Source of the DNA: an uncultured Candidatus Saccharibacteria bacterium
GTDB taxonomy: Bacteria; Patescibacteriota; Minisyncoccia; Phycocordibacterales; PALSA-1337
Assembly (NCBI GenBank): GCA_964492835.1
Contig: CAZBLC010000001.1
Span: 19,596 to 83,595 of the forward strand
DNA: 64,000 bases
Direction of reading: 5' to 3'
The notes under the pieces were generated by a model. It ran no database searches. It saw only the letters and a program-made list of their open reading frames with translations, and was not told where the DNA came from. A program made the position numbers and the translations under genes. Shown here piece by piece: positions 2,061-36,812 of this stretch; position 1 is the stretch's first letter, and the number at the start of each line of letters is the position of its first letter.

Positions 2061-3575
2061 ATGACAAATACAAATTCAAAACAAGTTACCCTTATCGTCC
2101 TTGATGGATGGGGCTACAGAGAAGATACTACTGCTAATGCCATTAAAGCATCTAAAACTCCTAATTTTGATAGATTATGGTCAACATACCCACATACTCT
2201 ACTAAACGCTTCTGGATTAGCTGTAGGGCTTCCTGAGGGTCAGATGGGTAATAGCGAGATCGGACACCAGACAATTGGTGCTGGTAAGGTTATCGACACT
2301 GAACTAGTTAGAATTGACAAGGCGATTGAAACTGGTGAATTTGCAAAGAACAAAGCACTCATTTCCCTATTCGATCATGTAAAGAAGAATAACTCTACAC
2401 TACATGTTCAGGGTCTTTTGAGTGATGGAGGTGTGCACAGTCATGAAAATCATCTTTTTGCTTTTCTAAGAACTGCTAAGGATGCTGGTATTAAAAATAT
2501 CGCTATTCATATCTTTACAGATGGTAGAGATACTGCCCCACAAAGTGCTTCTAAGTATATTAAAGAACTAGAAGCAGTCCTACTTGAAATCGGTGTTGGA
2601 AAGATTGCATCTATATCTGGAAGATTCTATGCGATGGATAGAGATAATAACTGGGATAGATTGGCTAAGACTGAAAATGCAATCTTTGAATGTAAAGGAA
2701 ATGTATGTAGTATTACTCCTTCTGATTATGTTAGTAACCTATACAAAGAAGGTAAACTAGATGAACACCTGGAACCTATAGTATGTCTAGATTACGAAGG
2801 TAAAGGATGTAGTATCTCTGATAACGATGCTGTCTTTTTCTATAACTTCAGAGCAGATAGAGCACGCATGATTTCAAGTAAGCTTATGGAACGCCAAAAA
2901 GCACAGAATATCTGTTTTGCTACAATGACTGAATATGGAACAGAGTTTAAATGTTTAATTGCATTTCCTCCATCAAAGATTGAGACTACAATTGCTGCAG
3001 AGGTATCTAAGTCTAATCTTTCTCAAGCACATATCGCTGAGACTGAAAAGTTTCCTCATGCTACATATTTCTTAAACGGTGGTGTAGAGAAACCATATCC
3101 TGGAGAGAGACACATAATGCTTGATAGTAGAAAGGATGTACCAACTCATGATCTAGCACCAAAGATGAGAGCTGAGGGTATTGCTGATAAGGCTGTAGAG
3201 GAAATTAATAATGGTACAAACTTTATCTTCATTAACTTTGCAAACCCAGACATGGTTGGACATACAGCAAATGTTCCTGCGATTATAATTGCAATTGAAG
3301 AGACTGATAAGCAACTAGGTAGAGTTATCGAGGCTCTTGAGAAGAAAGGTGGTGTCGCTTTCATAACTGCTGACCATGGTAATGCTGAAGTAAATATTGA
3401 TCCTATAACTGGAAAGAATCATACTTCTCATACGATTAATCCTGTGCCTGCAATAGTTACATCACATGATGTTAAATTAAGAGATGGAGGCGGACTATCT
3501 GATATTGCACCTACAATATTGAAGATGTTTGGTATAGAGAAGCCAGTAGTAATGACTGGACAAAGTCTAGTTTAA
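2061..3575 (+). CDS. gpmI: 2,3-bisphosphoglycerate-independent phosphoglycerate mutase
   Basis: iPGM N-terminus LIVLDGWGYRED, ~504 aa. Follows eno, forming a glycolytic pair. Confidence 0.95.
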   Translation: MTNTNSKQVTLIVLDGWGYREDTTANAIKASKTPNFDRLWSTYPHTLLNASGLAVGLPEGQMGNSEIGHQTIGAGKVIDTELVRIDKAIETGEFAKNKALISLFDHVKKNNSTLHVQGLLSDGGVHSHENHLFAFLRTAKDAGIKNIAIHIFTDGRDTAPQSASKYIKELEAVLLEIGVGKIASISGRFYAMDRDNNWDRLAKTENAIFECKGNVCSITPSDYVSNLYKEGKLDEHLEPIVCLDYEGKGCSISDNDAVFFYNFRADRARMISSKLMERQKAQNICFATMTEYGTEFKCLIAFPPSKIETTIAAEVSKSNLSQAHIAETEKFPHATYFLNGGVEKPYPGERHIMLDSRKDVPTHDLAPKMRAEGIADKAVEEINNGTNFIFINFANPDMVGHTANVPAIIIAIEETDKQLGRVIEALEKKGGVAFITADHGNAEVNIDPITGKNHTSHTINPVPAIVTSHDVKLRDGGGLSDIAPTILKMFGIEKPVVMTGQSLV

Positions 3576-4843
3576 ATTTTTGTAGTTTGGTATCGGATAT
3601 ACAGCATTCTAAAATACTTAACCAAAAGTATTATTAATGTTGTAGTAAACAGACCAAGACCAATACCTGCCATTACATCAGATACCCAGTGCACTCCTAG
3701 ATATATTCTACTAAAGGAGACCGTAAGGAGTAGTAGGGCCACTAGAGAAATTGATATTTCTCTCAATACCATTGAGTTAATTTTAACCAAGAATAGATAT
3801 ACTAGCAGTACAGAGAATGTTGTTATAGCAATTGCATGTCCACTTGGAAAGCTATATCCTGACTCAACAATATATCCGAATTCTGGACGTAATCTCAATA
3901 CCATATTCTTTATGAAGAAAGTAACTAGATATGATCCGCTTAGAGAAAGAAATATTATGATTGAGTCGTAGTATTTCTTTTTATACATAAAGTATGCAAT
4001 ACCAACTAGAGAGTATAGGATGATTGATGATGGACTGAATACATTTGTGATTATATTCATTACAGAAGACAGCATTGGTGTTGAATGAGCGATGAAATAT
4101 GCGTTTGCAAATAGGTCAAATTGTAATAGAAATACCTTATCAGTTAGTGCATCCTGTATTGTTTTGAAGAAAAGGTATAGACCGAATAGGTTAAATATTA
4201 GAGTAATTAATTCATACTTAACAAAGACATGGAAGTGTTTGTTAATAAACCTATATCCCCATATAACTAGAATACCTATAAATATAGCGATAACTATATA
4301 CTTACCAAGTACCGCAGACACAGCATGGTAACCTGCGCCAAATATGTAACCTATACCGATCGAGAATATGGCCCATAGAAATACAGCTATGAAATCATAT
4401 AGCCAAAAACTTTTAATATGTATTCTACTTGCACCTACTATAAACGGAGTAAATGATCTTGTTAGTGGACTGAAGCGACCGAATATAATTGTTTTAGCGG
4501 AATTAGCTTGTATCAAACTCCTAGCCTTGTCTATATACTCTCTTTTGATAAAGAAATATGGACCATACTTATTTACGAAATCAAAACCATACTTATGTCC
4601 AATGTGATATCCCAAAAAGTCTCCAATCATAGAACTTACCAATACAATTCCAAATACTACATACACATTCATCAAATCGATCTTAGATAGAAAACCTGAA
4701 ATAACGACAATGGTATTTCCTGGAACGAACTGTCCCATGATTGGAATACCCTCTAATATACTTGTAATTGATACTAAGATATACCCTCCATGCTCAACAA
4801 TTAACTGTAAATTTTGACCCACGGAGTGTATGAATTGAAACAT
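3572..4843 (-). CDS. DedA-family (SNARE-associated/TVP38) membrane domain fused to a C-terminal PAP2 lipid phosphatase domain
   Basis: N-terminal half carries DedA motifs (ILEGIPIMGQFVPGNTIVVISGF; GRFSPLTRSFTPFIVGASR). C-terminal half carries the three PAP2 motifs (LRLRPEF = KX6RP; SFPSGHA = PSGH; SRIYLGVHWVSDV = SRX5HX3D). Confidence 0.75.
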   Translation of the reverse strand: MFQFIHSVGQNLQLIVEHGGYILVSITSILEGIPIMGQFVPGNTIVVISGFLSKIDLMNVYVVFGIVLVSSMIGDFLGYHIGHKYGFDFVNKYGPYFFIKREYIDKARSLIQANSAKTIIFGRFSPLTRSFTPFIVGASRIHIKSFWLYDFIAVFLWAIFSIGIGYIFGAGYHAVSAVLGKYIVIAIFIGILVIWGYRFINKHFHVFVKYELITLIFNLFGLYLFFKTIQDALTDKVFLLQFDLFANAYFIAHSTPMLSSVMNIITNVFSPSSIILYSLVGIAYFMYKKKYYDSIIIFLSLSGSYLVTFFIKNMVLRLRPEFGYIVESGYSFPSGHAIAITTFSVLLVYLFLVKINSMVLREISISLVALLLLTVSFSRIYLGVHWVSDVMAGIGLGLFTTTLIILLVKYFRMLYIRYQTTKI

Positions 4844-4958
4844 AGAATTATTATGTAAATATTATACCACAAATGCGATAAAATTCTGATAAAATTTTTA
4901 TCACTGATTTCCCCACTAATTGTATGACTTTATCGCTAATCTAGGATATTATCACCTC

Positions 4959-5630
4959 ATGAAAATACTAATCATAGAAGATGATTTGGATATATCTAGC
5001 TATATTAGGAATAACTTTATCGAGGATTCATTTACTGTAGATGTTGCTCGTAATAGCAGTAATGGCTCATATATGGCTCGTACTAACTTCTATGATGTAA
5101 TAGTTATAGATTACGCATTACCTGATAAGGATGGGATATCTTTATGTGTTGAACTTAGAGAGTCTGGAATAGAGACACCTATAATATTTTTAACGAACAA
5201 CAAAGAGATGCGTAAAAGAATCTCTGCCCTTGAGAAAGGAGCTGATGACTATATGACTAAACCCTTCGCACTAGAGGAATTGAGAGCTCGTATACTTGCT
5301 CTAGCTAGGAGACCGAAGCATGTTGAGGATCCAATACTCACAGTCGATGATCTTGTATTGGATACTAACCGAAGAACAGCTCGTAGGGGTAATACTCAGA
5401 TATATTTAACTAGAAAAACGTATAACCTACTTGAATACCTTATGAAAAACAAAGGTACTGTACTATCTAGAGGTGTCATAATGGAGTATGTGTGGAACTC
5501 TGAAGGTGATCCATTCTCAAATACCGTAGAAGCTCATATCCTTTCACTTAGAAAGAAGATTAATGTAGGAGGTAAGAGAAATTTACTTCGTAATATACCT
5601 GGTAGAGGATATATTATTGATACTAACTAG
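4959..5630 (+). CDS. OmpR-family response regulator (receiver + winged-helix); ORF opens at 4920 but MKILIIEDD at 4959 is the likely start
   Basis: Receiver motifs (IIEDD; VIVIDYALPDKDG; KPF) and the C-terminal OmpR/PhoB winged-helix region (LTRKTYNLLEYLMKNKGTVLSR...). No histidine kinase adjacent. Confidence 0.85.
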   Translation: MKILIIEDDLDISSYIRNNFIEDSFTVDVARNSSNGSYMARTNFYDVIVIDYALPDKDGISLCVELRESGIETPIIFLTNNKEMRKRISALEKGADDYMTKPFALEELRARILALARRPKHVEDPILTVDDLVLDTNRRTARRGNTQIYLTRKTYNLLEYLMKNKGTVLSRGVIMEYVWNSEGDPFSNTVEAHILSLRKKINVGGKRNLLRNIPGRGYIIDTN

Positions 5631-7858
5631 TTTAATTTAACTGTACCACTCTGAATATCCTTTATTAACTTATCAACTTGTGTCTTAAGTAGTGGGAATT
5701 TAGTACGAGCAATATTTAGTACTTCTATAGCCTTTGCATTCTGCTTATCAAGAAGATATACATATGCCAATCCTGAATATAGCTCCTGACTATCTGGTGT
5801 ATCCTTTATTAGCTTGTTGTAAATCTCTACAGCTTTAGAATATTTCTTTATACCCACATATGCTCTAATGATATTTGGATCATAGAAGCTCTGATCATTT
5901 GGGAATAGCTTTAGAGCTGTTGCCTCATTACCAGTTGTAATCAATGTTGAAATATAAAATACCTTTGCGTTTATGTTATCCGGAGCTGACTTATATGCAT
6001 TCTCCATTAGGAATATTGCCTCCTTGTCTCTCTTAACATTTAGGTAGTTAGAAGCTAGTTGATACACTATTGTCTGCTTGTTAGGTGATAGTTGATTAGC
6101 TTTTTCAAGTAATGGAGTTCCATTAGCATAATCTGATATTGAATCGTAGAATCCACCTCCAAGGATATATATTCTTGCATCATTTGGTGTTTCCTTTATC
6201 TGATCTTCAATTCCCTTCTTTGCTAGGTTATAGAAATCTATCTTTGTCTTCTCTGGTATTCCATTTTGTCTGATTACTCCTGATGCACAATTAAGTAATT
6301 GTTCTCTAATTTCTTGATTAGATAGACTTAGATCTAGATCTAGTGCTTTAACAAATGAATCTATTGTAACTGTAGGTGGCTTTGTACAAGCTCGTAAACC
6401 ATCAATTAATCTTGTATTTGCTTGTATTGGCTTAATGTTTACAACATATACCATACCAGCAAACAGGATGATGATTATAGGGGTTATTACATAATCTCTT
6501 ATCGTTATATAGTCTTCAGTTGCAATCTGTTCATGCTTTTTGAATAGCTTACAAGGAGTTCCTGGTCTTAGAGTGGATACAAAAGCTAGGAATGTAAAGA
6601 ACATTACATAGCTTGTCTGGTTATCGAATACGAATACATTGTGTATTCCATATCCGACAAGTAATCCGATTAATACTGATTTCTGTGCTACTGTCTGATC
6701 ACTCTTTAAGATATATATTAGAGAAATTACATATAGAGAGAGGTATGCTAGTAGACCTAGTAATCCCCCTGCTACCAACCAATCTAGGAACACACTGTGT
6801 GCTCTATCAAACCATTGTTCATGTGCCCACATCTTAGGATTGTAGTTTGCATTGAAGATATAGTTGAAGTTCTCCTGACCAATTCCGATTATCGCAGTCT
6901 TTACACTTCCAAAAGATTCTTTAACTGCCATTGGCCATATATATCCTCTTGCTTGTGTCTTTGTGTCTGTTATAGATATAGTAGCAATACGTCCTAGTAC
7001 AGAGTTGTTCTGTATCCATTTAGCATCTCTGTTGTAAAAGAATATGATACCCAGAAGGATAATACCTCCGATGATACTTCCTGAAATTATTCTAGACTTA
7101 TTTGTCTGTCCTGTTTCCTTTCTTCCAAGGATCGCATACAGAGCAAGAGTTATTATCACTGCAAGTATCCAACCTAGTATTGTTCCTCTTGTTGCTGTTT
7201 GGAACATTACAAAAGAAAATATAGCTGACAGAATGGTATAGATATAGAAATAGTGATTCTTCTTAGAGTAGTACGCTATTGCCATATACATAGCTATAAA
7301 TGCATTTATTAGCATGTAAATTGCCATATATGCTGAATTACCTAGGGATGCATCTACACGACTTCCTTGATGAGTTTTAGCCCAACCAAAGAACTGGAAT
7401 AGGCCGTATATAGCAGTAATAAAACCAGCTATCAAGATAACATCGAAAAACTTCTTCCAATTCTCTTTTGTAGTAAGTACTGATGAAAGCACCATAATGT
7501 ACATCCATAGATGGACGATTATTATCCAACCCTCCATTCTTTCAAAATTTGACCAGATACTACGTAGAGGATTTAGTCCGAATATGTTTGCTATTAGAGT
7601 TATTACAGTAAATACCGTGACAGCAATAGTTATACCGTTCATCTTAGGTAATATACTTGTATCCTTACCCTTCTCTCTAAAGATTAGTATGACCCACAAT
7701 GCAAACACTATCTCTACCAATATTCTAAATACAAATGCCTTTCCGGAGATGAATGGGAAGAATAGCGGACTGGCTACGTATAAAGGTATAAAAGAAATTG
7801 CTCCAAGACCTATAATAATGGCGTATTTAAAAATACTGTTGTTTGTGGTATTGTTCAT
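5627..7858 (-). CDS. Polytopic membrane protein with a Wzy_C (O-antigen ligase/polymerase-like) core and a C-terminal TPR-repeat domain
   Basis: About 10 predicted TM segments with the FQTATRGTILGW loop typical of O-antigen ligase/Wzy_C. The C-terminal ~250 aa are Tyr/Ala/Leu-rich TPR-like repeats (AYVGIKKYSKAVEIYNKLI...). Confidence 0.6.
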   Translation of the reverse strand: MNNTTNNSIFKYAIIIGLGAISFIPLYVASPLFFPFISGKAFVFRILVEIVFALWVILIFREKGKDTSILPKMNGITIAVTVFTVITLIANIFGLNPLRSIWSNFERMEGWIIIVHLWMYIMVLSSVLTTKENWKKFFDVILIAGFITAIYGLFQFFGWAKTHQGSRVDASLGNSAYMAIYMLINAFIAMYMAIAYYSKKNHYFYIYTILSAIFSFVMFQTATRGTILGWILAVIITLALYAILGRKETGQTNKSRIISGSIIGGIILLGIIFFYNRDAKWIQNNSVLGRIATISITDTKTQARGYIWPMAVKESFGSVKTAIIGIGQENFNYIFNANYNPKMWAHEQWFDRAHSVFLDWLVAGGLLGLLAYLSLYVISLIYILKSDQTVAQKSVLIGLLVGYGIHNVFVFDNQTSYVMFFTFLAFVSTLRPGTPCKLFKKHEQIATEDYITIRDYVITPIIIILFAGMVYVVNIKPIQANTRLIDGLRACTKPPTVTIDSFVKALDLDLSLSNQEIREQLLNCASGVIRQNGIPEKTKIDFYNLAKKGIEDQIKETPNDARIYILGGGFYDSISDYANGTPLLEKANQLSPNKQTIVYQLASNYLNVKRDKEAIFLMENAYKSAPDNINAKVFYISTLITTGNEATALKLFPNDQSFYDPNIIRAYVGIKKYSKAVEIYNKLIKDTPDSQELYSGLAYVYLLDKQNAKAIEVLNIARTKFPLLKTQVDKLIKDIQSGTVKLN

Positions 7859-7867
7859 GATAATAAG

Positions 7868-9151
7868 ATGATATCACACTATAAAAACAAACTCTATTAC
7901 TTACTAAAAGCAAGTGAGAAATATACAAAAACGGACATGATATACCTAATTAGAGGTGGTTTTTGGCTTACTCTAGCTAATGTATTAACATCAGCAATGG
8001 TGTTTATAATGGCTATCGTATTTGCAAATCATATACCAGCTCATGAATATGGGGTATATAAATATTTCCTATCAGTACTTGGAATATTGTCGATCACAAC
8101 ATTGACAGGTATAGGAGGCATGGTCTCACAAGCAGTTGCACGAGGACTCGAAGGATCGTTAATAGAAGGATTAAAGGCAAAAATACGTTGGGGTACTGTT
8201 GGTGGAGTAGTTAGTATTTGTATCGGAATTTATTATTATATGAACGGAAATAATGAATTAGCGACTGTATTTATGTTAGCTTGTCTATTTATTCCTTTTA
8301 TGGACTCTTTTCATATATATCAAAATTATTTACAGGGTAAAAAAATATTCAATGTTTCTTCACGCTACATTACAATTAGTCAATTCTTTGCTACAGCAAT
8401 CATGATAACCATCGTATTGATAACAAGTAATATTTTTATTATCTTACTTACATATCTTATATCATGGACACTTGTTAGGTTATTCTTTTTTGTAAAAACA
8501 ATCAAACTTTACCCACCCAACAAAGAAAGCGATCCCAACACAATAATAATGGGTAAACACTCAAGCTTTATTGATATAATAGCTACCCTAATAGGGTCCC
8601 TTGACTCGATACTGATTTTCCATTATTTAGGTTCAATTGAACTTGCAGTCTATAGTTTTGCCATAGCACCCGTAACACAAATGGTTAGTCTGTTTAGAAA
8701 CATACCGACACTAGCTATGCCTAAAATGGCCAATCGTCATGTAAATGAAATAAAACAATTACTATATAAGAGGATTTTTGTAATATTTATTATATCAATT
8801 ATGGTTGTTATATTATATATGATTTTCGTCCCATATATTTATCAGATATTTTTCCCAAAATATCTGATGTCGATTGAACTATCACGCATATACGCCCTAA
8901 CAATATTAATTTCTATACCATTAACAATGTTGAGTTCAGCAATAAATGCAAAAATAAATATGTTACCAAAAAAAATACTTTATTTATGGAACATTCCAGG
9001 TTTTATATCTACTATTTTTATCTTCGTATCTATTCAAAAAATAGGTGTAGAATCTGTTGTTTATGCTAGGATATTATTACTTCTTGCAACAGCTGCAATA
9101 TCTGCCTATCTTTGGTTTTATATTGTAAAAAAGCAAAATCAACAGCAGTAA
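7868..9151 (+). CDS. Polysaccharide biosynthesis/oligosaccharide flippase-like membrane protein (Wzx/MOP-like)
   Basis: 427 aa, ~12 hydrophobic segments, no soluble domains. Divergent from the Wzy_C gene at the head of the glycan locus. Confidence 0.5.
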   Translation: MISHYKNKLYYLLKASEKYTKTDMIYLIRGGFWLTLANVLTSAMVFIMAIVFANHIPAHEYGVYKYFLSVLGILSITTLTGIGGMVSQAVARGLEGSLIEGLKAKIRWGTVGGVVSICIGIYYYMNGNNELATVFMLACLFIPFMDSFHIYQNYLQGKKIFNVSSRYITISQFFATAIMITIVLITSNIFIILLTYLISWTLVRLFFFVKTIKLYPPNKESDPNTIIMGKHSSFIDIIATLIGSLDSILIFHYLGSIELAVYSFAIAPVTQMVSLFRNIPTLAMPKMANRHVNEIKQLLYKRIFVIFIISIMVVILYMIFVPYIYQIFFPKYLMSIELSRIYALTILISIPLTMLSSAINAKINMLPKKILYLWNIPGFISTIFIFVSIQKIGVESVVYARILLLLATAAISAYLWFYIVKKQNQQQ

Positions 9152-11937: not shown

Positions 11938-12438
11938 TTATGGTATGGATTTTAAAATGTAATCTAGATCGATCACATTACTCTCTATCAAAATAGCATT
12001 TTTGCACCCCGCTCTCATTGCAGCTTCTATATCTGTTTTGCTATCCCCTATCATATAACTTGCCTTAATATCTATATTTAATTCTTCCACTGCTAAATGA
12101 AAAAGACCTGGTTCTGGTTTTCTACATATACACTTTTCGTCTTTATGGTGTGCACAAAAATAGAATGATCTGATGGATGTACCTATTCTATCTAAATCCC
12201 TATTAATCTTTGTGTGGAGTCTTTTAACAAACTCCTTAGACATCTTTCCTTTTGCAATCCCTGCTTGGTTACTTATAACCACAACAACATAGCCTGCGGA
12301 ATTGATCTTTTTTACTAGCTTTTTAGCATTTATATTCCACTTAAATTCGCTTATTTTTTTTACGTAATCATGTTCTGCTGGTTTTTTATTTAGGACTCCA
12401 TCTCTATCCAGAAAAACTGCTCTTATTTTATTATTCAT
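11938..12438 (-). CDS. gmhB: D-glycero-D-manno-heptose 1,7-bisphosphate phosphatase (HAD-IIIA)
   Basis: AVFLDRDGVLN HAD motif I, GmhB-type Cys/His zinc cluster (CAHHKDEKCICRKP), ~166 aa. Confidence 0.8.
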   Translation of the reverse strand: MNNKIRAVFLDRDGVLNKKPAEHDYVKKISEFKWNINAKKLVKKINSAGYVVVVISNQAGIAKGKMSKEFVKRLHTKINRDLDRIGTSIRSFYFCAHHKDEKCICRKPEPGLFHLAVEELNIDIKASYMIGDSKTDIEAAMRAGCKNAILIESNVIDLDYILKSIP

Positions 12439-12447
12439 ATTTCGAAT

Positions 12448-13455
12448 TTATGCTTTTTCTTGATCAAAGACAATTTCAACACCTTTATTATCAAAACCTA
12501 CCTCAATTTCAGCAAAATTATTTAGTCTATTTTTGTTTGCGTAGTCTATGACCGACCTTCTAATATCTTTATGTTTATTTTCTGGAGCTAAAAAAAGCAC
12601 ACAGCCTCCACCACCAGCACCAAGTACTTTTCCTCCCCATGCACCATTTTTTATCCCTAACGAATACAGATCATCTATAGTGCTATTTGAAATTTCATCC
12701 GCAAAAGTCTTTTTTAGAGTCCAGCTTTTGTGTAGAATATCTCCAGCTTTTTTAAAATCTCCCTTTTTAATTGCTTCACTGAAATGTGATACGAGAGAAG
12801 CTATTTCCTTGTATCCATCGATCTTTTTATCGATATTTTTAGTTTGATTGGATAATACACTGGAAGCATCCCTAGTTATTCCAGTAAAGAAAAGCAGAAG
12901 GCTTTTTTCAAATTTATCTTTATTCTTTTTAGATATAGCTAATGGTTCAATAGCTACTTTTCCACTTTTTTTAAATTTATAAATATTGAGTCCTCCATAA
13001 GATGCAGCATACTGATCTTGTTTGCCTATTGGTTCCTTTACAAGATCAATTTCTACCGTGCAGGCCTTTTCAGCCAAGCTCTGCTTATTTATTTTTTTAC
13101 CATTGAGCAGATGGAGTCCCTTAAGCAAGGCTACGGTAAAACTAGAAGATGAACCGAGTCCTGTCCTAGCTGGAATCGACGCGAAGGAGCCAATTTCTAT
13201 GTTATTATTTATTCCAAGAGTCAATAAGATTTCACGAACCCTGTTATGTATCAAATCTTTTGGGTGATCGACTGTTTCAGTTGTTGAATATTTAACTATT
13301 ACTTTATTTACCAAGGGTGTGTGCTTAATAGCCAAGTATACATATTGATTTATAGTAGTTGAAACAACACAGCCTCCGTGTTTCTTATAAAAATCTGGAA
13401 GGTCTGTACCCCCGCCAATAAAACTTATTCGAAGTGGTGCTCTTACTAAAATCAT
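12448..13455 (-). CDS. hddA: GHMP-family sugar kinase, D-glycero-alpha-D-manno-heptose 7-phosphate kinase-like
   Basis: HddA-like N-terminus LRISFIGGGTDLPDF, GHMP ATP-binding motif PARTGLGSSSS, 335 aa. Confidence 0.75.
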   Translation of the reverse strand: MILVRAPLRISFIGGGTDLPDFYKKHGGCVVSTTINQYVYLAIKHTPLVNKVIVKYSTTETVDHPKDLIHNRVREILLTLGINNNIEIGSFASIPARTGLGSSSSFTVALLKGLHLLNGKKINKQSLAEKACTVEIDLVKEPIGKQDQYAASYGGLNIYKFKKSGKVAIEPLAISKKNKDKFEKSLLLFFTGITRDASSVLSNQTKNIDKKIDGYKEIASLVSHFSEAIKKGDFKKAGDILHKSWTLKKTFADEISNSTIDDLYSLGIKNGAWGGKVLGAGGGGCVLFLAPENKHKDIRRSVIDYANKNRLNNFAEIEVGFDNKGVEIVFDQEKA

Positions 13456-14132
13456 TATTTATTATTATTTAATCTATTTATATCCTCTGGTGAAGTGAGT
13501 TGTGTATGCATTTCATCTCCTATAACTGCAAAAACTTTATGATCTTTTGCAAATTTTTTCATTAAATCCGTGAAATAGTATTCGTTTTTTACTTCATGTA
13601 ACTCAGGCTCATAATTAAAAATGTCAGAATTCATAATCATAAACCCGTTTGTAGCAAGGTTCGATGTAGGATTTCTAGGCTTTTCAATTACATCGATTAT
13701 CTGGTTTGTACTATCAATAGTCGCAATACCAACATTTTTTGGATCAGGAACGAAGTAGCACAGCCATGAAAATTCATATTTCAAACAATCTTCTATTTCT
13801 TTTTTTGTTAAAACATCATCTGCATATGAAACTGCAAATCTCTCTCCTTCTTTAATTAATTCCCTTGTTTTAATAAATCCTAGAGCGTTTCCGTTTTTTT
13901 CGCCTTCAACATAAGTAATCTTCCTTCCATAAAGTTCGTTACCACAATACTCTTTTATTTTTTCGCCTAAATATTTTACAACTAAAATAACTTCATCAAT
14001 CTCATTTGGCAAAGAAAGAAATAGATGATCTAGTGCAGTCTTACCTCTATAGACTACAAGTGGCTTTGGTGTGGTTAGTGTTATCGGTCTCATTCTCTGT
14101 CCTTCTCCGGCTGCAAGTATTATAAGCTTCAT
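13455..14132 (-). CDS. hddC: Sugar-1-phosphate nucleotidyltransferase (D-glycero-alpha-D-manno-heptose 1-phosphate guanylyltransferase-like)
   Basis: MKLIILAAGEGQRMRP nucleotidyltransferase motif. Contiguous with hddA and gmhB. Confidence 0.75.
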   Translation of the reverse strand: MKLIILAAGEGQRMRPITLTTPKPLVVYRGKTALDHLFLSLPNEIDEVILVVKYLGEKIKEYCGNELYGRKITYVEGEKNGNALGFIKTRELIKEGERFAVSYADDVLTKKEIEDCLKYEFSWLCYFVPDPKNVGIATIDSTNQIIDVIEKPRNPTSNLATNGFMIMNSDIFNYEPELHEVKNEYYFTDLMKKFAKDHKVFAVIGDEMHTQLTSPEDINRLNNNK

Positions 14133-18702: not shown

Positions 18703-19401
18703 TTACTTATCAAGGATTTTCTTTAATTCAATTATTTTGGTATCAACGTCACCTTCAGGCTTAAATATCGTTGAAGTTCCACAAACAAGCATATTGGCTC
18801 CTCTCTTTATCATCTCTGGGGCAGTATCTGGAGTTACTCCACCATCTATTTCTATTAGCATATTTGGATAGTTCTTCAACTTCCTTTTAAGCTCGGTTAT
18901 CTTATCCATCATTTCAGGAATAAGCTTGTGACCTAGAATTCCAGGATTTATAGCCATAAGCATAACTAGATCAATATCATTTAAAACATAGTCCAAAGTA
19001 GAAAGGCTGGTTGCAGGGTTTAGGGCCACTCCCGCCTTTTTACCAGTTGCTTTTATTAACTTAATTATTCTGTGTAGTTGTGGTGTAGATTCTTCATGAA
19101 CGACAATAATATCAGCTCCAGCATCAGCAAATATCCTTATAGAATTTTCCGGGTTATTAACCATTAAATGTACGTCAATGGGTATATTTGTTATTTTTTT
19201 GATTGCTTGAAGGATTTCAGGATGCAGGCCAAAACGAGGAACGAACTGATTATCCATAACATCAAAATGAATATAATCAATCCCGCCCTTCTCTAATTTT
19301 TCTATTTCGCCCTTAATATCTATCATATCTGCACACACAAGAGATGCTGATAATTTATAGTTTTTTTGAGATTTTTTTTTGTTTATTGTTTTCATATGCA
19401 A
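18703..19401 (-). CDS. rpe: Ribulose-phosphate 3-epimerase-like (TIM barrel)
   Basis: LSASLVCADM...IHFDVMDNQFVPRFG matches Rpe motifs (SILSAD / HxDVMDG.FVPN). 232 aa. Confidence 0.75.
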   Translation of the reverse strand: MHMKTINKKKSQKNYKLSASLVCADMIDIKGEIEKLEKGGIDYIHFDVMDNQFVPRFGLHPEILQAIKKITNIPIDVHLMVNNPENSIRIFADAGADIIVVHEESTPQLHRIIKLIKATGKKAGVALNPATSLSTLDYVLNDIDLVMLMAINPGILGHKLIPEMMDKITELKRKLKNYPNMLIEIDGGVTPDTAPEMIKRGANMLVCGTSTIFKPEGDVDTKIIELKKILDK

Positions 19402-19412
19402 TTAAAGTATAA

Positions 19413-20843
19413 CTACTCCAAATTAGAATGTCTTTCCCACATAGTATCATGTGTCTCACCAAGTTCCTCCATAAGCTTTAGAACGATCGCATCAAAGAAT
19501 ATGGCCAGAGACTGTTCATTTAATGTTGTCATTGGCTGAATAGAAATAAAATTGTCTATCTTTTTGGTCTTTGATGGTGCCTTTATTTCAACAACACAGT
19601 CGGCTAATTTTCCAATTCTAGATTCAGGATTACCAGTTACAGCAGCAATCCTTGCTTGATTTCTTTTAGCAATTAAAGTCAATTCGTAAATGGTCTGTGT
19701 CTCACCTGACCCAGAACAAACTAGAAATAAATCTTCTGCCTTTATGGATGGAACGTTAGCATCACCTAGGATATATGCGTCTATTCCCATATGCTTTAAT
19801 CTCATTACAAACCCCCTTACCGCCATTCCAACTCTACCAGCACCGCAAGCCACTATTTTTTTAGCACTTAAAATATGCTCAGTTAGAACACTCGCCTGTT
19901 TTTCATCAATTTTTAATAGGACAGTTTTTATTTCAGTTAAGATATTCTCCACTCTTTCTATGGTTGTCTGATTCAAGTTATTATTTTTATAGAGCCCGCG
20001 TTCTACAAGTGAATAACCTTTTTCGTTGATATTGTCATCTATACATGCAAATAATTCTTGATTTGGGATAGCATATTTGATAGGTAGAATATCAAATCTC
20101 TCAGGGTTTTTTTCCATTTCAAAAGGAGTCTGAATCGGATATTTTTGTATTTTATTCTTAAATATATTCCTATTAATCTTTTCGAACAATTCTTTATGTC
20201 CTGTTGGCTTAATAATTCTAAGTTTTGTAAGTAGACCAAAAGCCTTGAATATATATTTTTTAAAGAAAATAGGTAGTCTTTTTTTATCGTTTATCCACAT
20301 TTTTTCTAAAAACTCCTTTTTAAAAATTCCACACATTGAAATAAGATAATAAGGATATCCGGTATTTCTTATCATCTGCCATTTATTTTTATCTAAATCC
20401 AAATAACTTATAGCCTTTCTTTTATTTAGATTAATTTTATGACTAAGCTTATTAAAAGACTCAACTGATTTACCAAATAGCCACCAAGAATAACTTATAT
20501 AATCCGCGTCTGCCTTTCTCATCTCTCTAATCACCTCATCTAAAACCTCAGGCTTTGCAATATTCAAATGGTCTTCATTCCAAACAAGTATATAGTCATA
20601 TCTTGCTTCCTTTATCATATCCAAAGCATTTGTAATCCAGCCCCTATTGTCATCTAGTAAACTAAATATAACTAACTTATTTCCAAGCTCATTCTTTAAA
20701 AAATCTAATGCTTCCTCACGAAATGTCCCTCTAACATTTATTAGCCAATTGTCACTAATAAATTTAAAAGACTTAAAGGAGCTTTTAAAATGGTCAAGTC
20801 TAGTGAGTGAATTTATTCTTAGATTTCCAAGTATAGTTATCAT
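19413..20843 (-). CDS. Two-domain protein: N-terminal ~300-aa domain of unknown function fused to a C-terminal SIS sugar-phosphate isomerase domain (GmhA/HxlB/KpsF-like)
   Basis: C-terminal VACGAGRVGMAVRGFVMRLKHMGIDAYILGD...LFLVCSGSGETQ is a canonical SIS fold signature. N-terminal domain unassigned. Confidence 0.6.
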   Translation of the reverse strand: MITILGNLRINSLTRLDHFKSSFKSFKFISDNWLINVRGTFREEALDFLKNELGNKLVIFSLLDDNRGWITNALDMIKEARYDYILVWNEDHLNIAKPEVLDEVIREMRKADADYISYSWWLFGKSVESFNKLSHKINLNKRKAISYLDLDKNKWQMIRNTGYPYYLISMCGIFKKEFLEKMWINDKKRLPIFFKKYIFKAFGLLTKLRIIKPTGHKELFEKINRNIFKNKIQKYPIQTPFEMEKNPERFDILPIKYAIPNQELFACIDDNINEKGYSLVERGLYKNNNLNQTTIERVENILTEIKTVLLKIDEKQASVLTEHILSAKKIVACGAGRVGMAVRGFVMRLKHMGIDAYILGDANVPSIKAEDLFLVCSGSGETQTIYELTLIAKRNQARIAAVTGNPESRIGKLADCVVEIKAPSKTKKIDNFISIQPMTTLNEQSLAIFFDAIVLKLMEELGETHDTMWERHSNLE

Positions 20844-27683: not shown

Positions 27684-29498
27684 TTACTTTATATTAATCT
27701 TATAAGTCCTAGCCCAAATCTGAAAAGTTATTATAGCCCAAAGCATAGTAAAATGATATGAATCCTTTGATAGATGCTTATCATATATATCATTTATCTC
27801 ACCCCAGTTGAATATCTCTGCTGTAGGTTGATAGTATTTGTCACTGAATATATTTCTTACATATTTTGAAATTTCTGGATCTCTAAGCCATTTTGCGCCA
27901 GGAGAAAACCACCCTCGTTTTGGTTGTTTGAACAAATACTTAGGTAAAAGAAGCTTCATAGATTCCTTTAATAAGACTTTGGTATTAAATAAATTTATCT
28001 TTTTATTTAGAGGTATTTTCCTTGAATATTCAAATAATTCCAGATCTAGTAGTGGTACACGTAATTCTAATCCTGACGCCATTGAAGTCTTATCGCTTCT
28101 CATTAAAGATTCATCTACCAACCAACTCTTTTGGTCGGTTTCCATTAGTAATTCTGGACCACTTTTATTTAGATTGTCAAAATATTTTTTTTCAAAAAAC
28201 TTCTTTGACGGTTCCAATTTAAAATCTCTCGAAATAACCCTGAATAATTCTTTATCCTTTTGGAACATAAACAATTCAAATTGGTCTATCCCCTTTTTGG
28301 TATTTAATTTTAGTAATTTACTACTATTAATATATTCTCTAATAAATTTAGGAATAGTCTGATAATAGACTGATAATAGACTTATTTTATACCTCTCATA
28401 TCCACCAAACAATTCATCTCCTCCATCTCCACCAAGAACCACAGCAACTCTTTGCTTTGCAAAACGTGCAAGCTTAATCATTGGTATTATTGTCGGGTTA
28501 GATATTGGTTCGTCCAAATGATAAATAGCCTCTTCTAGCAATGGAATTATTTCATTTTTTTTAACAAAAATCTCGTTATGTTGTGTTTTATATATCTGAG
28601 CTGTGGTACGAGCAAGCAACATATCCATATTAAATTTATCCGCTTGCTCATCTTTATCTAACTCAAAACCAACACTAAAGGTGATTATATCCTTTCTAAA
28701 GGTAGATACTGCTTGTAATACAGTGGTTGAATCTATGCCACCAGAAAGATATATACCTAGTGGTCTGTCAGAAATCAGTTGTCTCTTAACTGATTCATAT
28801 ATCACCTCTCTTAGTTCTTTAGAATTTATAGAATTATTTTCTATATTTTTGTATGGATTATATTTATTAATAGTCATTTTTTTATCTTTAAGATAAAGAT
28901 AATTACTGGGTGGTAGCTTATTTATATTATTAAAAAGCGTAAACGGCTCTGGCACATATAGAATTCTCATATAGTGAGCAAATGCTTCTTTATTTAGAGT
29001 CCTGTCAATAGGGTGCTCAAGAATTGCTTTGATTTCAGATGAAAAAATGAATTTATCACCATCCCAATAATAGTACAATGGCTTTATTCCTATTGGATCC
29101 CTAGCAATAAATAAACTCATTTCGAGATTATCCCAGATAGCAAAAGCAAACATACCGTTAAAGCGACTAACGCATTCCTTACCCCATTTTTTATATGCCG
29201 CAAGAATGACTTCGGTATCGCCAGTAGTTACGAAATCATACTCACTTTTCATCTCATCTTTGATTTCATTAAAATTATATATTTCCCCATTGAAAACAAT
29301 GATAAATCGACCGTCGTCGCTTTTCATCGGCTGGTTTGCTATTGATCTTGTATCAAGAATACTCAGACGATTATGACCTAAAGATATATCGCTATTAAGA
29401 AAAACTCCGGTACCATCTGGTCCTCGGTGTTTTAAACATTGGTTCATTTTCTCAATGTATTCTTTGTTTTCCCAGTTAAATCCATTTATAGCACACAT
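27684..29498 (-). CDS. asnB: Asparagine synthase (glutamine-hydrolysing)-family amidotransferase (WbpS/AsnB-like)
   Basis: N-terminal Ntn Cys MCAINGF...HRGPDGTG and the central PP-loop SGGIDS. Confidence 0.9.
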   Translation of the reverse strand: MCAINGFNWENKEYIEKMNQCLKHRGPDGTGVFLNSDISLGHNRLSILDTRSIANQPMKSDDGRFIIVFNGEIYNFNEIKDEMKSEYDFVTTGDTEVILAAYKKWGKECVSRFNGMFAFAIWDNLEMSLFIARDPIGIKPLYYYWDGDKFIFSSEIKAILEHPIDRTLNKEAFAHYMRILYVPEPFTLFNNINKLPPSNYLYLKDKKMTINKYNPYKNIENNSINSKELREVIYESVKRQLISDRPLGIYLSGGIDSTTVLQAVSTFRKDIITFSVGFELDKDEQADKFNMDMLLARTTAQIYKTQHNEIFVKKNEIIPLLEEAIYHLDEPISNPTIIPMIKLARFAKQRVAVVLGGDGGDELFGGYERYKISLLSVYYQTIPKFIREYINSSKLLKLNTKKGIDQFELFMFQKDKELFRVISRDFKLEPSKKFFEKKYFDNLNKSGPELLMETDQKSWLVDESLMRSDKTSMASGLELRVPLLDLELFEYSRKIPLNKKINLFNTKVLLKESMKLLLPKYLFKQPKRGWFSPGAKWLRDPEISKYVRNIFSDKYYQPTAEIFNWGEINDIYDKHLSKDSYHFTMLWAIITFQIWARTYKINIK

Positions 29499-32635: not shown

Positions 32636-33591
32636 TTTGTTATATATGACTTTACCGTTTTTTCCAATCCTTCATCAAAGGATATCTCTGGATTATAACC
32701 AAGAATTATACGCGCCTTGTCTATATTAGCAAAGCTATTCTTTACATCACCCTTTCTTTCAGGCAAATACTTTATATGAATAGATTTGCCAAATATTTTA
32801 TTAATTTTACTTACCATATCGTTTAGAGAAACAAAACTTCCATACGAAGCATTGAATACCTCCCCAAAACCTTCTTCTACTTTAAGTGCACAAATATTTG
32901 CATCAACAACGTTTTTAATAAAGGTGAAATCTCTAAAATTTTCACCGTCACCGTATATTTCTGGAGATTTGTCCTCATTAATTAATTTAATAAACTTAGG
33001 AATTACAGCTGAATATGTTGAGTTTGGATTTTGTCTAGGACCAAAAACATTGAAATAGCGAAGTCCGATGGTTTTCAATCCATACAATGAGGTAAATATC
33101 TTAGCATAATATTCCATTGATAATTTCTGTAACGCGTATGGGGAAAGTGGATCTGGTATCATAGCTTCTGTTTTGGGGAGTGTTTTGGTGTTGCCATATA
33201 CAGAACTAGACGAAGCATATATTACTCTATCTACTTTTGCATGATGTGCAGCAATAAAAACACTTAGCGATCCGGTTGAGTTTGCCATATGGGTTTCCAT
33301 AGGCATTTCTATACTTCTCGGGACCACATTTAATGCTGCTTCATGTAATACAGCGTACGCTCCTTCAAAAATCTTTTTCAAAGCGTCTGTATCAATTATA
33401 TCAGTCTTATGAAATTCAATCTTATCTCTAACACCATCAAGATTTTTTACATTTCCATTTGAAAGATTATCTACCACAACCACGTTCGCGCCGTCACTTA
33501 CAAGTTCATCGACTATATGTGAACCAATGAATCCGGCACCGCCTGTTACAACTATTTTTTTATCTTTTAAAAATTCTCTATTTTTTATCAT
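32632..33591 (-). CDS. NAD-dependent nucleotide-sugar epimerase/dehydratase (SDR; UDP-GlcA/UDP-GlcNAc 4-epimerase-like)
   Basis: VTGGAGFIGSH Rossmann motif and the catalytic YxxxK (YALQK). 319 aa. Confidence 0.85.
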   Translation of the reverse strand: MIKNREFLKDKKIVVTGGAGFIGSHIVDELVSDGANVVVVDNLSNGNVKNLDGVRDKIEFHKTDIIDTDALKKIFEGAYAVLHEAALNVVPRSIEMPMETHMANSTGSLSVFIAAHHAKVDRVIYASSSSVYGNTKTLPKTEAMIPDPLSPYALQKLSMEYYAKIFTSLYGLKTIGLRYFNVFGPRQNPNSTYSAVIPKFIKLINEDKSPEIYGDGENFRDFTFIKNVVDANICALKVEEGFGEVFNASYGSFVSLNDMVSKINKIFGKSIHIKYLPERKGDVKNSFANIDKARIILGYNPEISFDEGLEKTVKSYITK

Positions 33592-34640
33592 ATATTTTTT
33601 AAAATTTCATTAGCTACACTTTTTACTGAAAAATCAGCAATACTTGCTCCTGCTTCCCTTGCGATACCAACATCGGTTGAAACGATTTTACACCCTGCTG
33701 CTTGTGCTTCTTTAAACACCATTCCATACCCTTCATAGAAAGAAGTATTTAAAAACACATCACATCCTTTATAGTATGGAACTAGATCTGTTTGCCAGCC
33801 CTCAAATACCATTATATCCTCCAATTTTAGCTTATACGACAGTCTTTTTAGACTTTCTAGTCTTTTGCCGGAACCTACTATAACTAACCCTATATCACTG
33901 ATTTGTGCCTTTACGATCTCCATGGCTTTTATACCTAACTCTATATTCTTTTCATCCTCTATACGTGAAGCCATTAGGATGATCTTTTTGAATTGTGGGT
34001 ATTTTTGTTTAAGGTCGAAACTTGGTGTTGTTGTCTTTATATATTCAACATTTACATCAATTGGTTTAACAATTATCCTATCCTTATCTATCTTTCTTGA
34101 TACCAATGAATCCGCAATTCTATTAGACACCACTCGTATTACTTGCGCATGAGGGATTGTAAATCGAGAGATGAAAAGTCTAATTCTATTAATCAATGCA
34201 TTGATATATCCAATTTTAGGACTAATGAAATATGGACTATATAGATCTGTATGTATTTGTAGTAGCAATTCGGAATACTTTTTTAGATTAGCTAAGCATT
34301 TACCAACCAGAGCTGTCTCAAATACATCCTGACAACTAACTAAAACTAGTTCATCTTTATCCACCTTCTTTAATATCTTTTTGCCAATCTTACAAGCATC
34401 ACTTACGTAGTTTAGTCTTACAATAGAGTTTGTAGAGTATATTGTACAGTTATCAGCTATACTTATTGGCTCATAGTTTTTTGTTGAAAAAACTATTATA
34501 TGTAGTTCCTTGTACAACTTTGAGTATTCAAGCATTCTCGCTCTTACTGAACTCTTTTCATTTAGGACAAGTCTATCTGTAGACACCATTACAGCAATAT
34601 AATTTATATATGTTTTATATTCAGTATTATATCTTTCCAT
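33588..34640 (-). CDS. Glycosyltransferase family 4
   Basis: EGYGMVFKEAQAAGCKIVSTDVG motif. Confidence 0.7.
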   Translation of the reverse strand: MERYNTEYKTYINYIAVMVSTDRLVLNEKSSVRARMLEYSKLYKELHIIVFSTKNYEPISIADNCTIYSTNSIVRLNYVSDACKIGKKILKKVDKDELVLVSCQDVFETALVGKCLANLKKYSELLLQIHTDLYSPYFISPKIGYINALINRIRLFISRFTIPHAQVIRVVSNRIADSLVSRKIDKDRIIVKPIDVNVEYIKTTTPSFDLKQKYPQFKKIILMASRIEDEKNIELGIKAMEIVKAQISDIGLVIVGSGKRLESLKRLSYKLKLEDIMVFEGWQTDLVPYYKGCDVFLNTSFYEGYGMVFKEAQAAGCKIVSTDVGIAREAGASIADFSVKSVANEILKNI

Positions 34641-35634
34641 AAATAGAAATTATTTCTTTTCCAATATCACTCCATGTATGTGTCCAAGTAAATCTCTTTA
34701 TCTTCTCTGCTTGCATGTCTCTGTTCTTTCTGTCAGACATCCATACTATCTTTTCTACTATATCTTTTTCATTCATCGGGTCTACAAAAATTGCACAATC
34801 CTTAACTCTCTCTGATATTCCAGTTTCTTTAGTTAGGATGAATGGAGTACCTACTCTTATTGCATCAAATATCATATTTGGACTTATATCTCCTATTGAG
34901 GTAAGGATAACGGCATATGATCTACGCATTCTCTCTTGGAAGTTATCATATACTGCTTTTGTTGTATCGAATTCTATAGGTTCTGTAACTTTAGTTTGAG
35001 CAATTTTAAATGTTTTTTTTAGCATATCTATATTCTTCCACACCAGCTCTCTTGTTCCAGCAACAAATACTCTGTTCTCTGGTTGTATCTGTTCTTCTCT
35101 TGCACCACAGAAGTTCTCTACTATCTTACTCTTTCTTGAATCAAGCTTATACGCTTTCTCGAAAATATTCTTTTGCCATTCTGTGCTGTATATTACAGTA
35201 CTAGCATTTCGGAGTGCATCTCCACCAAGTTTGTATACTAGTTTCTCCTTTCTGCTTAGTTTGTTTAGAGAGGTGTAATAGAAATCTTTGAACAGGACTA
35301 GCTCTCCTGTTCTTTCAGTATATGACTCCCATAGAAAATCTCCTCCAGTTCGTACGATATACTTCTTCCTCATTATCTTACATGCATACATTGTAGGCAC
35401 TGCAGCACTCCATGTATCAAGTACTAGTATCATATCTGCATTCCATCCTTTTCTAAATATCTTAAGGAAAAATAGGATGTGTCTTATGAAAGTAGGAAAA
35501 GCTCTTTCCCAACGGTAGGCTGCAACCTTAACATCATGTCCTTCTCCCTTCCATGTCTCGTATAGGTTACGAGCATATTGAGCCGGTCCTCCTATATCTG
35601 GAGGATATATACCTGTTGAAATTAAGATCTTCAT
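34627..35634 (-). CDS. Glycosyltransferase (GT-B, GT4-like)
   Basis: MKILISTGIYPPDIGGPAQYARNL N-terminus typical of GT4 N-domains. Confidence 0.6.
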   Translation of the reverse strand: MKILISTGIYPPDIGGPAQYARNLYETWKGEGHDVKVAAYRWERAFPTFIRHILFFLKIFRKGWNADMILVLDTWSAAVPTMYACKIMRKKYIVRTGGDFLWESYTERTGELVLFKDFYYTSLNKLSRKEKLVYKLGGDALRNASTVIYSTEWQKNIFEKAYKLDSRKSKIVENFCGAREEQIQPENRVFVAGTRELVWKNIDMLKKTFKIAQTKVTEPIEFDTTKAVYDNFQERMRRSYAVILTSIGDISPNMIFDAIRVGTPFILTKETGISERVKDCAIFVDPMNEKDIVEKIVWMSDRKNRDMQAEKIKRFTWTHTWSDIGKEIISIYGKI

Positions 35635-36812
35635 ATTACCTTTAAGAATACCTCATTTTTCATATCATTTGCAATGATATTCCATTCATACTTCTCTTTG
35701 ACCATTTCCATAGCATTCTTAACGATATAGTCTCTAGATTCACTATCCTTTATTAACTTCTCTACTTTCTGAGCAATACTGCTAGGGTTTTGTACTTCAC
35801 ATAATAGTCCTGTCTCTCCATCCTTAAGGAAATCTAATATTCCCCCAACTGGAGTAGCTATAACTGGTATACCAGCTGCCATAGCTTCGATGTATGAATT
35901 ACCAAATCCTTCAGAAAGTGATGGTCTTATAAATATATCTGAAACATGTAGATATTGTGGCATATCCTTATGTGGTACGTATCCTAGAAATATCACTCGA
36001 TTCTCTAGACCAAGAGTTTTTACTTTCTCTTTTAGCTCCACTTCCTGATACCCAGTACCTAGTATTAAAAATTTAACATTTGAAGGTAGGTATTGCATGC
36101 TTGATATGATATCTCCGACAGCATTCTTAACTACTAGTCTTGAGGTTGTGATTAGGAATATATCATCTATCTTTTTTCCAAGTTTCTGTTTCAATATTTC
36201 TAGTTCTGTATGTGGTTTTCTTGTAGAGAAGAGATTAAAATCTACTGCATTTGGTATTACTGTTACAGGACACTTCGCTTTCATGTCGAGTGCCCAATCT
36301 GCTAGATATTTAGATATTGTTTGTATGTGATCTGCTTTTGTAAATATTTTTTTAAATAGCGGATATACAAACATAGCTCTTCTCTTGATGTATGGTATTG
36401 GATCACCTTCTTGTAGAGTCAGGATGAATGGTATTTTGGGATTTAGCATTTTAAATATAACAGCAGCAAATGAGTTATATGTAGCCATCATTGACCATAT
36501 AGCGTCATACTTGTTCTGCTTATGTAATTTAATTGCCTTTACTAATGCAGTAATTGGCATTAGATATTTGTTTAGGTGTAAATACCAAGGTAGAGAATCT
36601 GATGAATTCTTTTGTGTTCCTGTATATCCAACTCTATATACATTTATGTTCCCTATCCTCTCGTAACTAGGTAATTTAGAATCTAAATGCAGAGTCACCA
36701 TATCAAACTGTATTTCCTCATTTGGAATCCTGTCAGTTATCTCCTTTATAGCAACCTCTGCTCCCCCTATAAATTTTGGATAGTATACTAAAGAAAATAT
36801 TAGTATTTTCAT
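35631..36812 (-). CDS. Glycosyltransferase family 4
   Basis: MKILIFSLVYYPKFIGGAEV N-terminus and SEGFGNSYIEAMAAGIPVIATPVGG motif. Confidence 0.8.
   Translation of the reverse strand: MKILIFSLVYYPKFIGGAEVAIKEITDRIPNEEIQFDMVTLHLDSKLPSYERIGNINVYRVGYTGTQKNSSDSLPWYLHLNKYLMPITALVKAIKLHKQNKYDAIWSMMATYNSFAAVIFKMLNPKIPFILTLQEGDPIPYIKRRAMFVYPLFKKIFTKADHIQTISKYLADWALDMKAKCPVTVIPNAVDFNLFSTRKPHTELEILKQKLGKKIDDIFLITTSRLVVKNAVGDIISSMQYLPSNVKFLILGTGYQEVELKEKVKTLGLENRVIFLGYVPHKDMPQYLHVSDIFIRPSLSEGFGNSYIEAMAAGIPVIATPVGGILDFLKDGETGLLCEVQNPSSIAQKVEKLIKDSESRDYIVKNAMEMVKEKYEWNIIANDMKNEVFLKVI

Follow-up and report, generated by a model that had tools for sequence, protein, structure and literature searches.

Membrane proteins with a Wzy_C domain include polymerases of lipid-linked glycans, ligases that move a glycan to its final anchor and oligosaccharyltransferases that attach it to protein, and the locus described here raises the question of which of these tasks such a protein performs in a patescibacterial cell, and on what acceptor. 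The locus lies in a 64,000-nucleotide stretch of DNA (the window) from an uncultured Candidatus Saccharibacteria bacterium (GTDB lineage Patescibacteriota; Minisyncoccia; Phycocordibacterales; PALSA-1337), at positions 19,596 to 83,595 of contig CAZBLC010000001.1 in assembly GCA_964492835.1. The gene in question encodes a 743-amino-acid (aa) protein in which a Wzy_C domain is followed by a tetratricopeptide repeat (TPR) domain. An earlier note on this DNA had proposed that the protein might glycosylate a type IV pilin, and had named a Wzy polymerase or a WaaL ligase as the alternative. By fold, catalytic residues and genomic context, the protein falls in the WaaL/PglL class; tests for a PglL_A domain and for pilin adjacency failed, while the architecture of WsfB-type enzymes was matched. 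We think it probable that the protein is a donor-promiscuous terminal glycan transferase of this ligase class, and not a polymerase.

The gene occupies positions 5627-7858 on the minus strand, facing convergently a response-regulator gene at 4920-5630 on the plus strand, and we take it as a candidate terminal glycan ligase or oligosaccharyltransferase. The open reading frame (ORF) is as the earlier note had it, and Pfam bears out both of its domain assignments: Wzy_C (PF04932) matches residues 210-373 (E 2e-13; score 50.7 bits, cutoff 31.7), and several TPR families cover residues ~540-735 (TPR_19, E 1e-12). Three distant members of the family score 63-73 bits against the same Wzy_C profile, which places the family in that superfamily. 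In NCBIfam, the protein has TPR-family matches far under the cutoffs and the transmembrane (TM) part has no match, and searches of PDB sequences with the full protein and with a profile of the TM part gave TPR or chance matches only. A tblastn search of plasmids with the protein gave zero matches.

The family is large and uniform. A protein search returned more than 2000 matches, and the top 120 are all ~720-810 aa long, align over their full length at 46-88% identity and, where the host is named, come from Patescibacteria, Paceibacterota or Parcubacteria. Confirmed relatives are present in at least 549 species-level genomes, one genome having been scanned per species; OY969557.1 is a complete genome with a member of the family. 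The best 80 of these relatives (L004-L083), all from metagenome-assembled genomes of the Candidate Phyla Radiation (CPR), are 39-88% identical to the window protein over its full length, and counts of genomic context given below out of 80 refer to them. The Wzy_C-TPR protein is thus a single orthologous, strongly conserved family and not a serotype-specific gene. Members already carry the labels "O-antigen ligase family protein" or "TPR protein" in public annotation, and our literature searches for the Wzy_C-TPR family in Patescibacteria, or for its island, found no description of either.

The choice between a polymerase and a ligase turns on the exchange of the neighboring exporter. In the window, the ligase gene is divergent from a gene for a 427-aa Wzx-type (MOP/Polysacc_synt) flippase of lipid-linked glycans at 7868-9151 on the plus strand (Pfam E 7.5e-12; at least 10 hydrophobic segments), an ORF and a family that the earlier note had recognized correctly. 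The two genes are separated by 9 bp, and wzx is the first gene of the variable island. In relatives, too, the first gene on the 5' side is mostly divergent and immediately adjacent, and it belongs to one of three kinds of lipid-linked-glycan exporter: among 61 typed loci, 26 have Wzx, 24 have Wzm/Wzt and 11 have a fused ABC_membrane+ABC_tran protein, the ATP-binding cassette (ABC) pair being recognized as ABC2_membrane for Wzm and as ABC_tran with Wzt_C for Wzt. On a neighbor-joining tree of the Wzy_C-TPR proteins, the exporter types are interleaved, and the 61 taxa require 21 or more switches between them. Even the closest orthologue (L004, 88% protein identity) has ABC2_membrane plus ABC_tran/Wzt_C where the window has Wzx. 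When these two loci are compared by blastn, a single collinear block of 79.7% identity links L004 9976-14403 to window 7883-3461, with nothing past it, such that DNA homology extends no more than ~25 bp upstream of the start of the ligase gene, to an island breakpoint that we place at 7859-7883. Beyond the breakpoint, the two islands share only scattered protein matches of 30-45%. One orthologue serves three export routes and survives wholesale replacement of the island, and it is therefore most likely a terminal ligase or oligosaccharyltransferase. Independence of the donor route and of repeat-unit structure is a property of WaaL/PglL-type ligases, and the family has it as judged by genomic context alone.

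The predicted structure points the same way. An AlphaFold 2 model of the protein (predicted local distance difference test, 84.3; predicted template modeling score, 0.78) has twelve TM helices, one long helix at residues 448-491 and an all-helical domain at residues 500-737, and its top structural match is WaaL of Cupriavidus metallidurans (7TPJ), at 14% identity. The protein therefore has the 12-TM WaaL fold that marks WaaL/PglL-type ligases. From alignments A1 and A2 (24 and 26 sequences), hhalign and loop conservation, we delimit a catalytic domain of this fold at residues 1-447 (6518-7858, minus strand), and within it R224, R290, R304, R352, H354, E106/R107, D169, QENFNY 328-333 and D412/N413 are invariant in these alignments. 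The most strongly conserved motifs of the family are LRSIWSNFERMEGW, HQGxRVDASLGN, QTATRGT, TQARGYIWPMA, GxGQENFNYxFNxNYxPxMxxxEQWFDRAH and FVFDN. In Escherichia coli WaaL, R215, R288 and H338 are functionally important, and they are kept in PglL as R224, R298 and H349 (PMC3643930). The window protein has the corresponding Arg/Arg/His set in R224, R304 and H354. In an hhalign comparison with E. coli WaaL, R224 falls on R215 and R304 on R288, in a weak alignment (score 29.8, probability 7.6%), and the spacing from Arg to His is equal in the two proteins, H354 standing at R304+50 and H338 at R288+50. With the same profile, WzyE of E. coli scores 16.0 and the O16 polymerase WbbH 17.5, and TM segments alone align.

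These observations also bear on the alternative that the protein is a classical Wzy polymerase, joining repeat units flipped by Wzx at the outer face. Pfam Wzy_C includes polymerases, and some Wzy polymerases of O antigen or enterobacterial common antigen carry it; like the enzyme proposed here, they handle undecaprenyl diphosphate-linked glycans at the outer face and pair with Wzx. The window pairs the gene with wzx, and its island offers no second candidate for a polymerase. Wzy proteins, however, are hypervariable and specific for their repeat unit, with which they co-vary, and they are absent from ABC transporter-dependent pathways, where the polymer is completed in the cytoplasm and Wzy is not needed. 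A polymerase would be expected at Wzx-dependent loci only and would change with the repeat unit, whereas an ABC exporter stands beside the same orthologue in 35 of the 61 typed loci, the 88%-identical relative included, and the protein stays 39-88% identical though islands are replaced wholesale. The hhalign scores, moreover, favor WaaL over E. coli WzyE and Wzy, and the WaaL-type His is invariant. The ABC pairing, the conservation across island replacement and this His lead us to reject the polymerase, and what probability we leave it is very small. Of the alternative offered in the earlier note, the ligase class is upheld by fold and by the Arg/Arg/His set, and the polymerase falls with exporter swapping.

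The protein differs from WaaL of C. metallidurans and E. coli K-12 in having a 13th TM helix and a TPR domain of 250 residues beyond the catalytic part, and the acceptor in a monoderm cell without lipid A-core would have to differ as well. The 13th helix and the stalk that follows (residues 448-491; 6386-6517) form one long helix in the model, and the all-helical TPR domain of ~7 repeats takes up residues 492-743 (5630-6385), both encoded on the minus strand. Our topology model sets the N-terminus inside. Invariant residues then make up 56 of 145 positions in the predicted outward loops versus 2 of 57 in the inward loops, and Lys/Arg clusters are enriched in the inward loops, as the positive-inside rule has it. 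The loop at 431-447, before TM13, is predicted to be cytoplasmic because it has four Lys/Arg and zero invariant residues. With 13 TM helices, Lys/Arg in the inward loops and invariant residues in the outward loops, the TPR domain is therefore predicted to lie outside the membrane, and the invariant C491 and C524, just past TM13, are consistent with an extracytoplasmic location. The earlier note had called the domain periplasmic; its placement outside the membrane agrees with our prediction, while in a monoderm CPR host the term should be extracytoplasmic. At a mean pairwise identity of 39-49%, compared with 55-69% for the catalytic part, the TPR domain is less conserved yet constrained.

A mechanism that would accommodate these features begins with a glycan built on polyprenyl diphosphate at the cytoplasmic face, by three conserved glycosyltransferases of family 4 (GT4a-c) together with strain-specific enzymes of the island. 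The lipid-linked glycan would be brought to the outer face by the neighboring Wzx in this genome, and by Wzm/Wzt or the fused ABC exporter in relatives. There, the WaaL-fold domain, with R224, R304 and H354 facing outward, would transfer it en bloc to a conserved acceptor and free the carrier diphosphate. TM13 would hold the ~250-residue TPR domain outside the membrane, where it may dock the acceptor or a partner.

As to the acceptor, we favor a protein because TPR domains accompany protein-glycosylating enzymes, WaaL and TacL have none and the island genes resemble S-layer clusters; we put the chance of a protein acceptor at about even, with the larger part of it for an S-layer or general acceptor and the smaller part for pilin. 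By analogy with WsfB or PglL, the most likely acceptor would be a surface protein. TPR domains are fused to, or encoded beside, protein-glycosylating membrane enzymes in WsfB, WsaA/WsaB and PglL (PMC2943079). The pilin arabinosyltransferase TfpW of Pseudomonas aeruginosa likewise has a periplasmic TPR domain (bioRxiv 10.1101/2020.04.19.049825), and it resembles our protein as a polytopic glycosyltransferase of the membrane that ends in a large TPR domain on the outside; its substrate is a protein. It differs in being an ArnT/Emb-like GT-C enzyme with a DDX motif, in using a polyprenyl-monophosphate sugar donor and in its gene always lying beside pilA. The closest architectural analogue, compared by its published description, is the S-layer O-oligosaccharyltransferase WsfB of Paenibacillus alvei, also a monoderm, which is described as Wzy_C with a C-terminal TPR domain; in Geobacillus stearothermophilus, the TPR protein WsaA is encoded next to WsaB instead (PMC2943079). 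The combination of Wzy_C and a C-terminal TPR domain, in a monoderm and at a glycan cluster, is found here as well.

On that analogy, the enzyme would be a general or S-layer protein O-oligosaccharyltransferase, WsfB-like, decorating abundant or many surface proteins, a reading that we hold to be possible but somewhat doubtful. S-layer glycan clusters contain ABC transporters, an asparagine-synthase homologue (wsfA in P. alvei) and glycerophosphotransferases (PMC2943079), and similar genes occur in the islands, namely the AsnB gene at 27684-29498 of the window, Wzm/Wzt, and Glyphos_transf in the P0035 locus. Methyltransferases beside Wzt in 25 loci would suit chain-terminating caps. Against this reading, an S-layer or other acceptor gene was recognized neither in the window nor among the conserved neighbors, the Patescibacteria enzyme differs from WsfB and WsaB in being encoded by a core gene that stays in place while the island at its side is exchanged, and the likeness to WsfB is one of shared domain architecture as a review describes it. 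A glycolipid ligase, forming a lipoglycan in a single membrane as TacL does for pneumococcal lipoteichoic acid and WaaL for lipid A-core, we regard as a serious rival, if a fairly unlikely one. WaaL is the top structural match, a lipid acceptor would account for the lack of an acceptor gene linked to the ligase gene and one island has teichoic acid-type genes (three Glyphos_transf and a CTP_transf_3); the VTT-PAP2 fusion near the ligase gene suits recycling of the carrier, though it suits every ligase model equally. TacL of Streptococcus pneumoniae is a precedent in a monoderm, being a Wzy_C-domain ligase that moves an undecaprenyl diphosphate-linked polymer to its final anchor, but at 397 aa it has no TPR-sized C-terminal extension and its acceptor is a glycolipid (PMC5727136). 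WaaL, at 419 aa in E. coli and 403 aa in 7tpj_B, is too short for one as well, which leaves the conserved external TPR domain of our family, with its invariant residues, and TM13 to be explained. CPR/Patescibacteria are not known to make lipid A or lipopolysaccharide, so a role of WaaL in the strict sense would be very unlikely; none of the lpx or waa genes is present in the 64-kb window.

The pilin remains to be weighed as the acceptor that the earlier note had put forward, in an enzyme that would act on pilin Ser/Thr as PglL, PilO/TfpO or TfpW do, with the TPR domain recognizing the pilin. The type IV pilus operon is genuine, comprising the major pilin (38617-39081, minus strand), PilC, PilT, PilB and PilM and reaching 46277, and the note quoted the pilin sequence correctly. 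The pilin has a prepilin signal and includes the peptide SATPSSTPWTDSTSG; residues 65-115 contain 21 Ser/Thr in 51 positions (41%) versus a background of 11.8%, the densest such segment among 60 window ORFs. A Ser/Thr-rich globular domain is, however, common in type IV pilins. PglL, PilO (TfpO) and PglS share with our protein the Wzy_C superfamily, the conserved Arg/Arg/His and donor promiscuity, the pilus operon, the window island and the ligase gene succeed one another in a single direction and TfpW supplies a pilin glycosyltransferase with a TPR domain. "Beside" the pilus operon, as the note had it, holds less well; the operon is real, but the pilin is 30.7 kb away, past the island and a VirD4-like gene. 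Across the 80 genomes, a search for prepilin signals found prepilin genes at most 10 kb from the ligase gene in two. In L010 (12394-17292), the ligase gene is followed directly by genes for a pilin orthologous to the major pilin of the window (46% identity), for two other pilins, for a prepilin peptidase and for four minor pilins, and in L028, one prepilin gene overlaps the ligase stop codon; the orthologue of the window's major pilin is directly 3' in L010 only. We estimate that ~0.6 direct adjacencies would arise by chance, so that two are not significant. In none of the 80 loci is PilB, PilC, PilT or PilM encoded within 10 kb of the ligase gene. Among 42 loci whose upstream sequence is long enough, the pilus operon comes ahead of the VirD4-like gene in only 4, which all belong to the clade nearest the window. 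PglL homologues, by contrast, adjoin a pilin gene in 21 of 31 cases (PMC3643930), and pilO always lies beside the gene of its pilin substrate. PglL_A (PF15864) was unmatched at E<=0.01, and for four members at E<=10, as was Wzy_C_2 at E<=10; the TPR domain here is much larger than in the PglL group, and the host is a monoderm. Pilin glycosylation in Patescibacteria has been predicted in silico only, never demonstrated, and glycosylation of Saccharibacteria pili has been called unexplored (PMC11623550). Linkage to pilin and the PglL_A profile thus lend the idea of a pilin-specific oligosaccharyltransferase no specific support, and we judge it unlikely.

Several points weigh against a terminal ligase with a protein acceptor. 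No candidate acceptor gene is conserved beside the ligase gene in the best 80 genomes, where the conserved neighbors are housekeeping genes only, and the binding of polysaccharides and the scaffolding of export machines are further tasks of TPR domains. Similarity to WaaL at the sequence level is marginal, with the hhalign probability of 7.6% and no sequence match in the PDB. Finally, most Wzx-type islands, that of the window included, have no separate Wzy-sized membrane protein within 10 kb, and since no other such protein was found, the polymerase role in these Wzx-type genomes is excluded by the orthology argument alone.

The island next to the ligase gene spans ~27 kb (9152-36812), entirely on the minus strand, and encodes about ten GT4 and one GT2 glycosyltransferases, methyltransferases, a deacetylase, an AsnB-type amidotransferase and sugar-nucleotide enzymes, as identified with Pfam and NCBIfam. 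Its variable part (9152-33587) has no other polytopic membrane protein by hydropathy and no DNA homology to the L004 island. At the far end is a conserved GT4c-GT4b-GT4a block (33588-36812, minus strand; Pfam), and then the marker of the far boundary, a VirD4/TraD-like ATPase (36817-38499, minus strand) identified with NCBIfam and Pfam and by synteny, without a TM segment. We examined this end by anchoring on the VirD4-like ATPase in metagenome contigs. Of 49 metagenome loci with 3 kb or more downstream of the VirD4-like gene, 44 have orthologues of GT4a-c directly after it, and in three metagenome loci the Wzy_C-TPR gene follows it within 10 kb. In one island-free locus (L130, 853-13535), the VirD4-like gene has a WecA/MraY-family transferase gene 4 kb upstream and the ligase gene 23 bp downstream, with MurB and SecA next in line, which shows the backbone into which islands insert. 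The macro-synteny is fixed, running from the VirD4-like gene through GT4abc, the variable island, the exporter and the ligase gene to housekeeping genes. The earlier note had the ligase and flippase genes heading the locus; the pair is indeed one fixed end of the island, but its genes are divergent and form no operon with the island. On the 3' flank in the best 80 genomes are MurB (51 genomes), SecA (43), Obg (27), an AI-2E transporter (21), GatB (18), a VTT-PAP2 fusion (15) and a response regulator (12), and glycan genes are confined to the 5' side of the ligase gene. The VTT(DedA)-PAP2 fusion, at 3572-4843 on the minus strand of the window (Pfam) and no farther than 8 kb from the ligase gene in those 15 genomes, is a candidate undecaprenyl diphosphate phosphatase that may recycle the carrier released by the ligase, a role drawn from the activities of the DedA and PAP2 families.

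Other features of the locus may be recorded here. The gap between the start codons of the ligase and wzx genes (7859-7867) is a spacer of 102 bp in L010; because the divergent starts are just 9 bp apart in the window, either both promoters must lie inside the adjoining coding sequence or one start must be misplaced. The VirD4/TraD/HerA-like soluble ATPase, coupling-protein-like and tied to the glycan locus, is seen across the metagenome loci L084-L163, of which L086-L088 are close relatives from the Hainich groundwater samples. Its gene in L123 is separated from GT4a by an inserted gene (12107-13537) for a surface protein with Lamin-Tail and PKD domains. Within the island, the regions at 11938-14132 and 18703-20843 (minus strand) encode a HAD phosphatase, a GHMP kinase, a nucleotidyltransferase, a ribulose-phosphate 3-epimerase and an SIS/HxlB-like isomerase fused to an uncharacterized 290-aa N-terminal part, a set that suggests an unusual nucleotide sugar made from intermediates of the pentose phosphate or ribulose monophosphate pathway. 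The AsnB gene (minus strand) encodes a glutamine-dependent asparagine-synthase-type amidotransferase that possibly amidates a uronic acid. Farther along the window, the gene at 52132-54669 (minus strand) encodes a large exported protein of 845 aa that has a hydrophobic segment at its N-terminus and matches DUF3160 over the full length (E 1e-103), and an ORF with two LAGLIDADG_3 domains, homing endonuclease-like, lies at 54779-55840 (minus strand) beside a gene for a small polytopic membrane protein (55837-56286) and recG.

Hardly any work has addressed the cell surface of CPR/Patescibacteria. These cells attach to other microbes, and pili and surface glycans are thought to mediate the contact. 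The exclusion of a polymerase role, the external topology predicted for the TPR domain and a bracketed hypervariable glycan island across Patescibacteria are new here, and they make the Wzy_C-TPR protein a specific and broadly conserved candidate for the enzyme that completes the assembly of surface glycoconjugates. With the ligase gene on one side and the VirD4-like gene and GT4abc on the other, the island, which is comparable to an O-antigen locus, has landmarks that bracket it, and the diversity of glycan types can thereby be surveyed straight from metagenomes; donor-promiscuous ligases also attract interest for glycoconjugate production. If the acceptor is a pilin or an S-layer protein, protein O-glycosylation would be established in the CPR. 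We tentatively suggest, at a little less than an even chance, a general system of protein O-glycosylation in Patescibacteria, in which the external TPR domain selects surface proteins, pilins and/or S-layer proteins, and the glycans come from an exchangeable island. Were this so, the CPR would have in the Wzy_C-TPR protein its first assigned glycosylation enzyme, one that is likely to help determine both host attachment and phage evasion.

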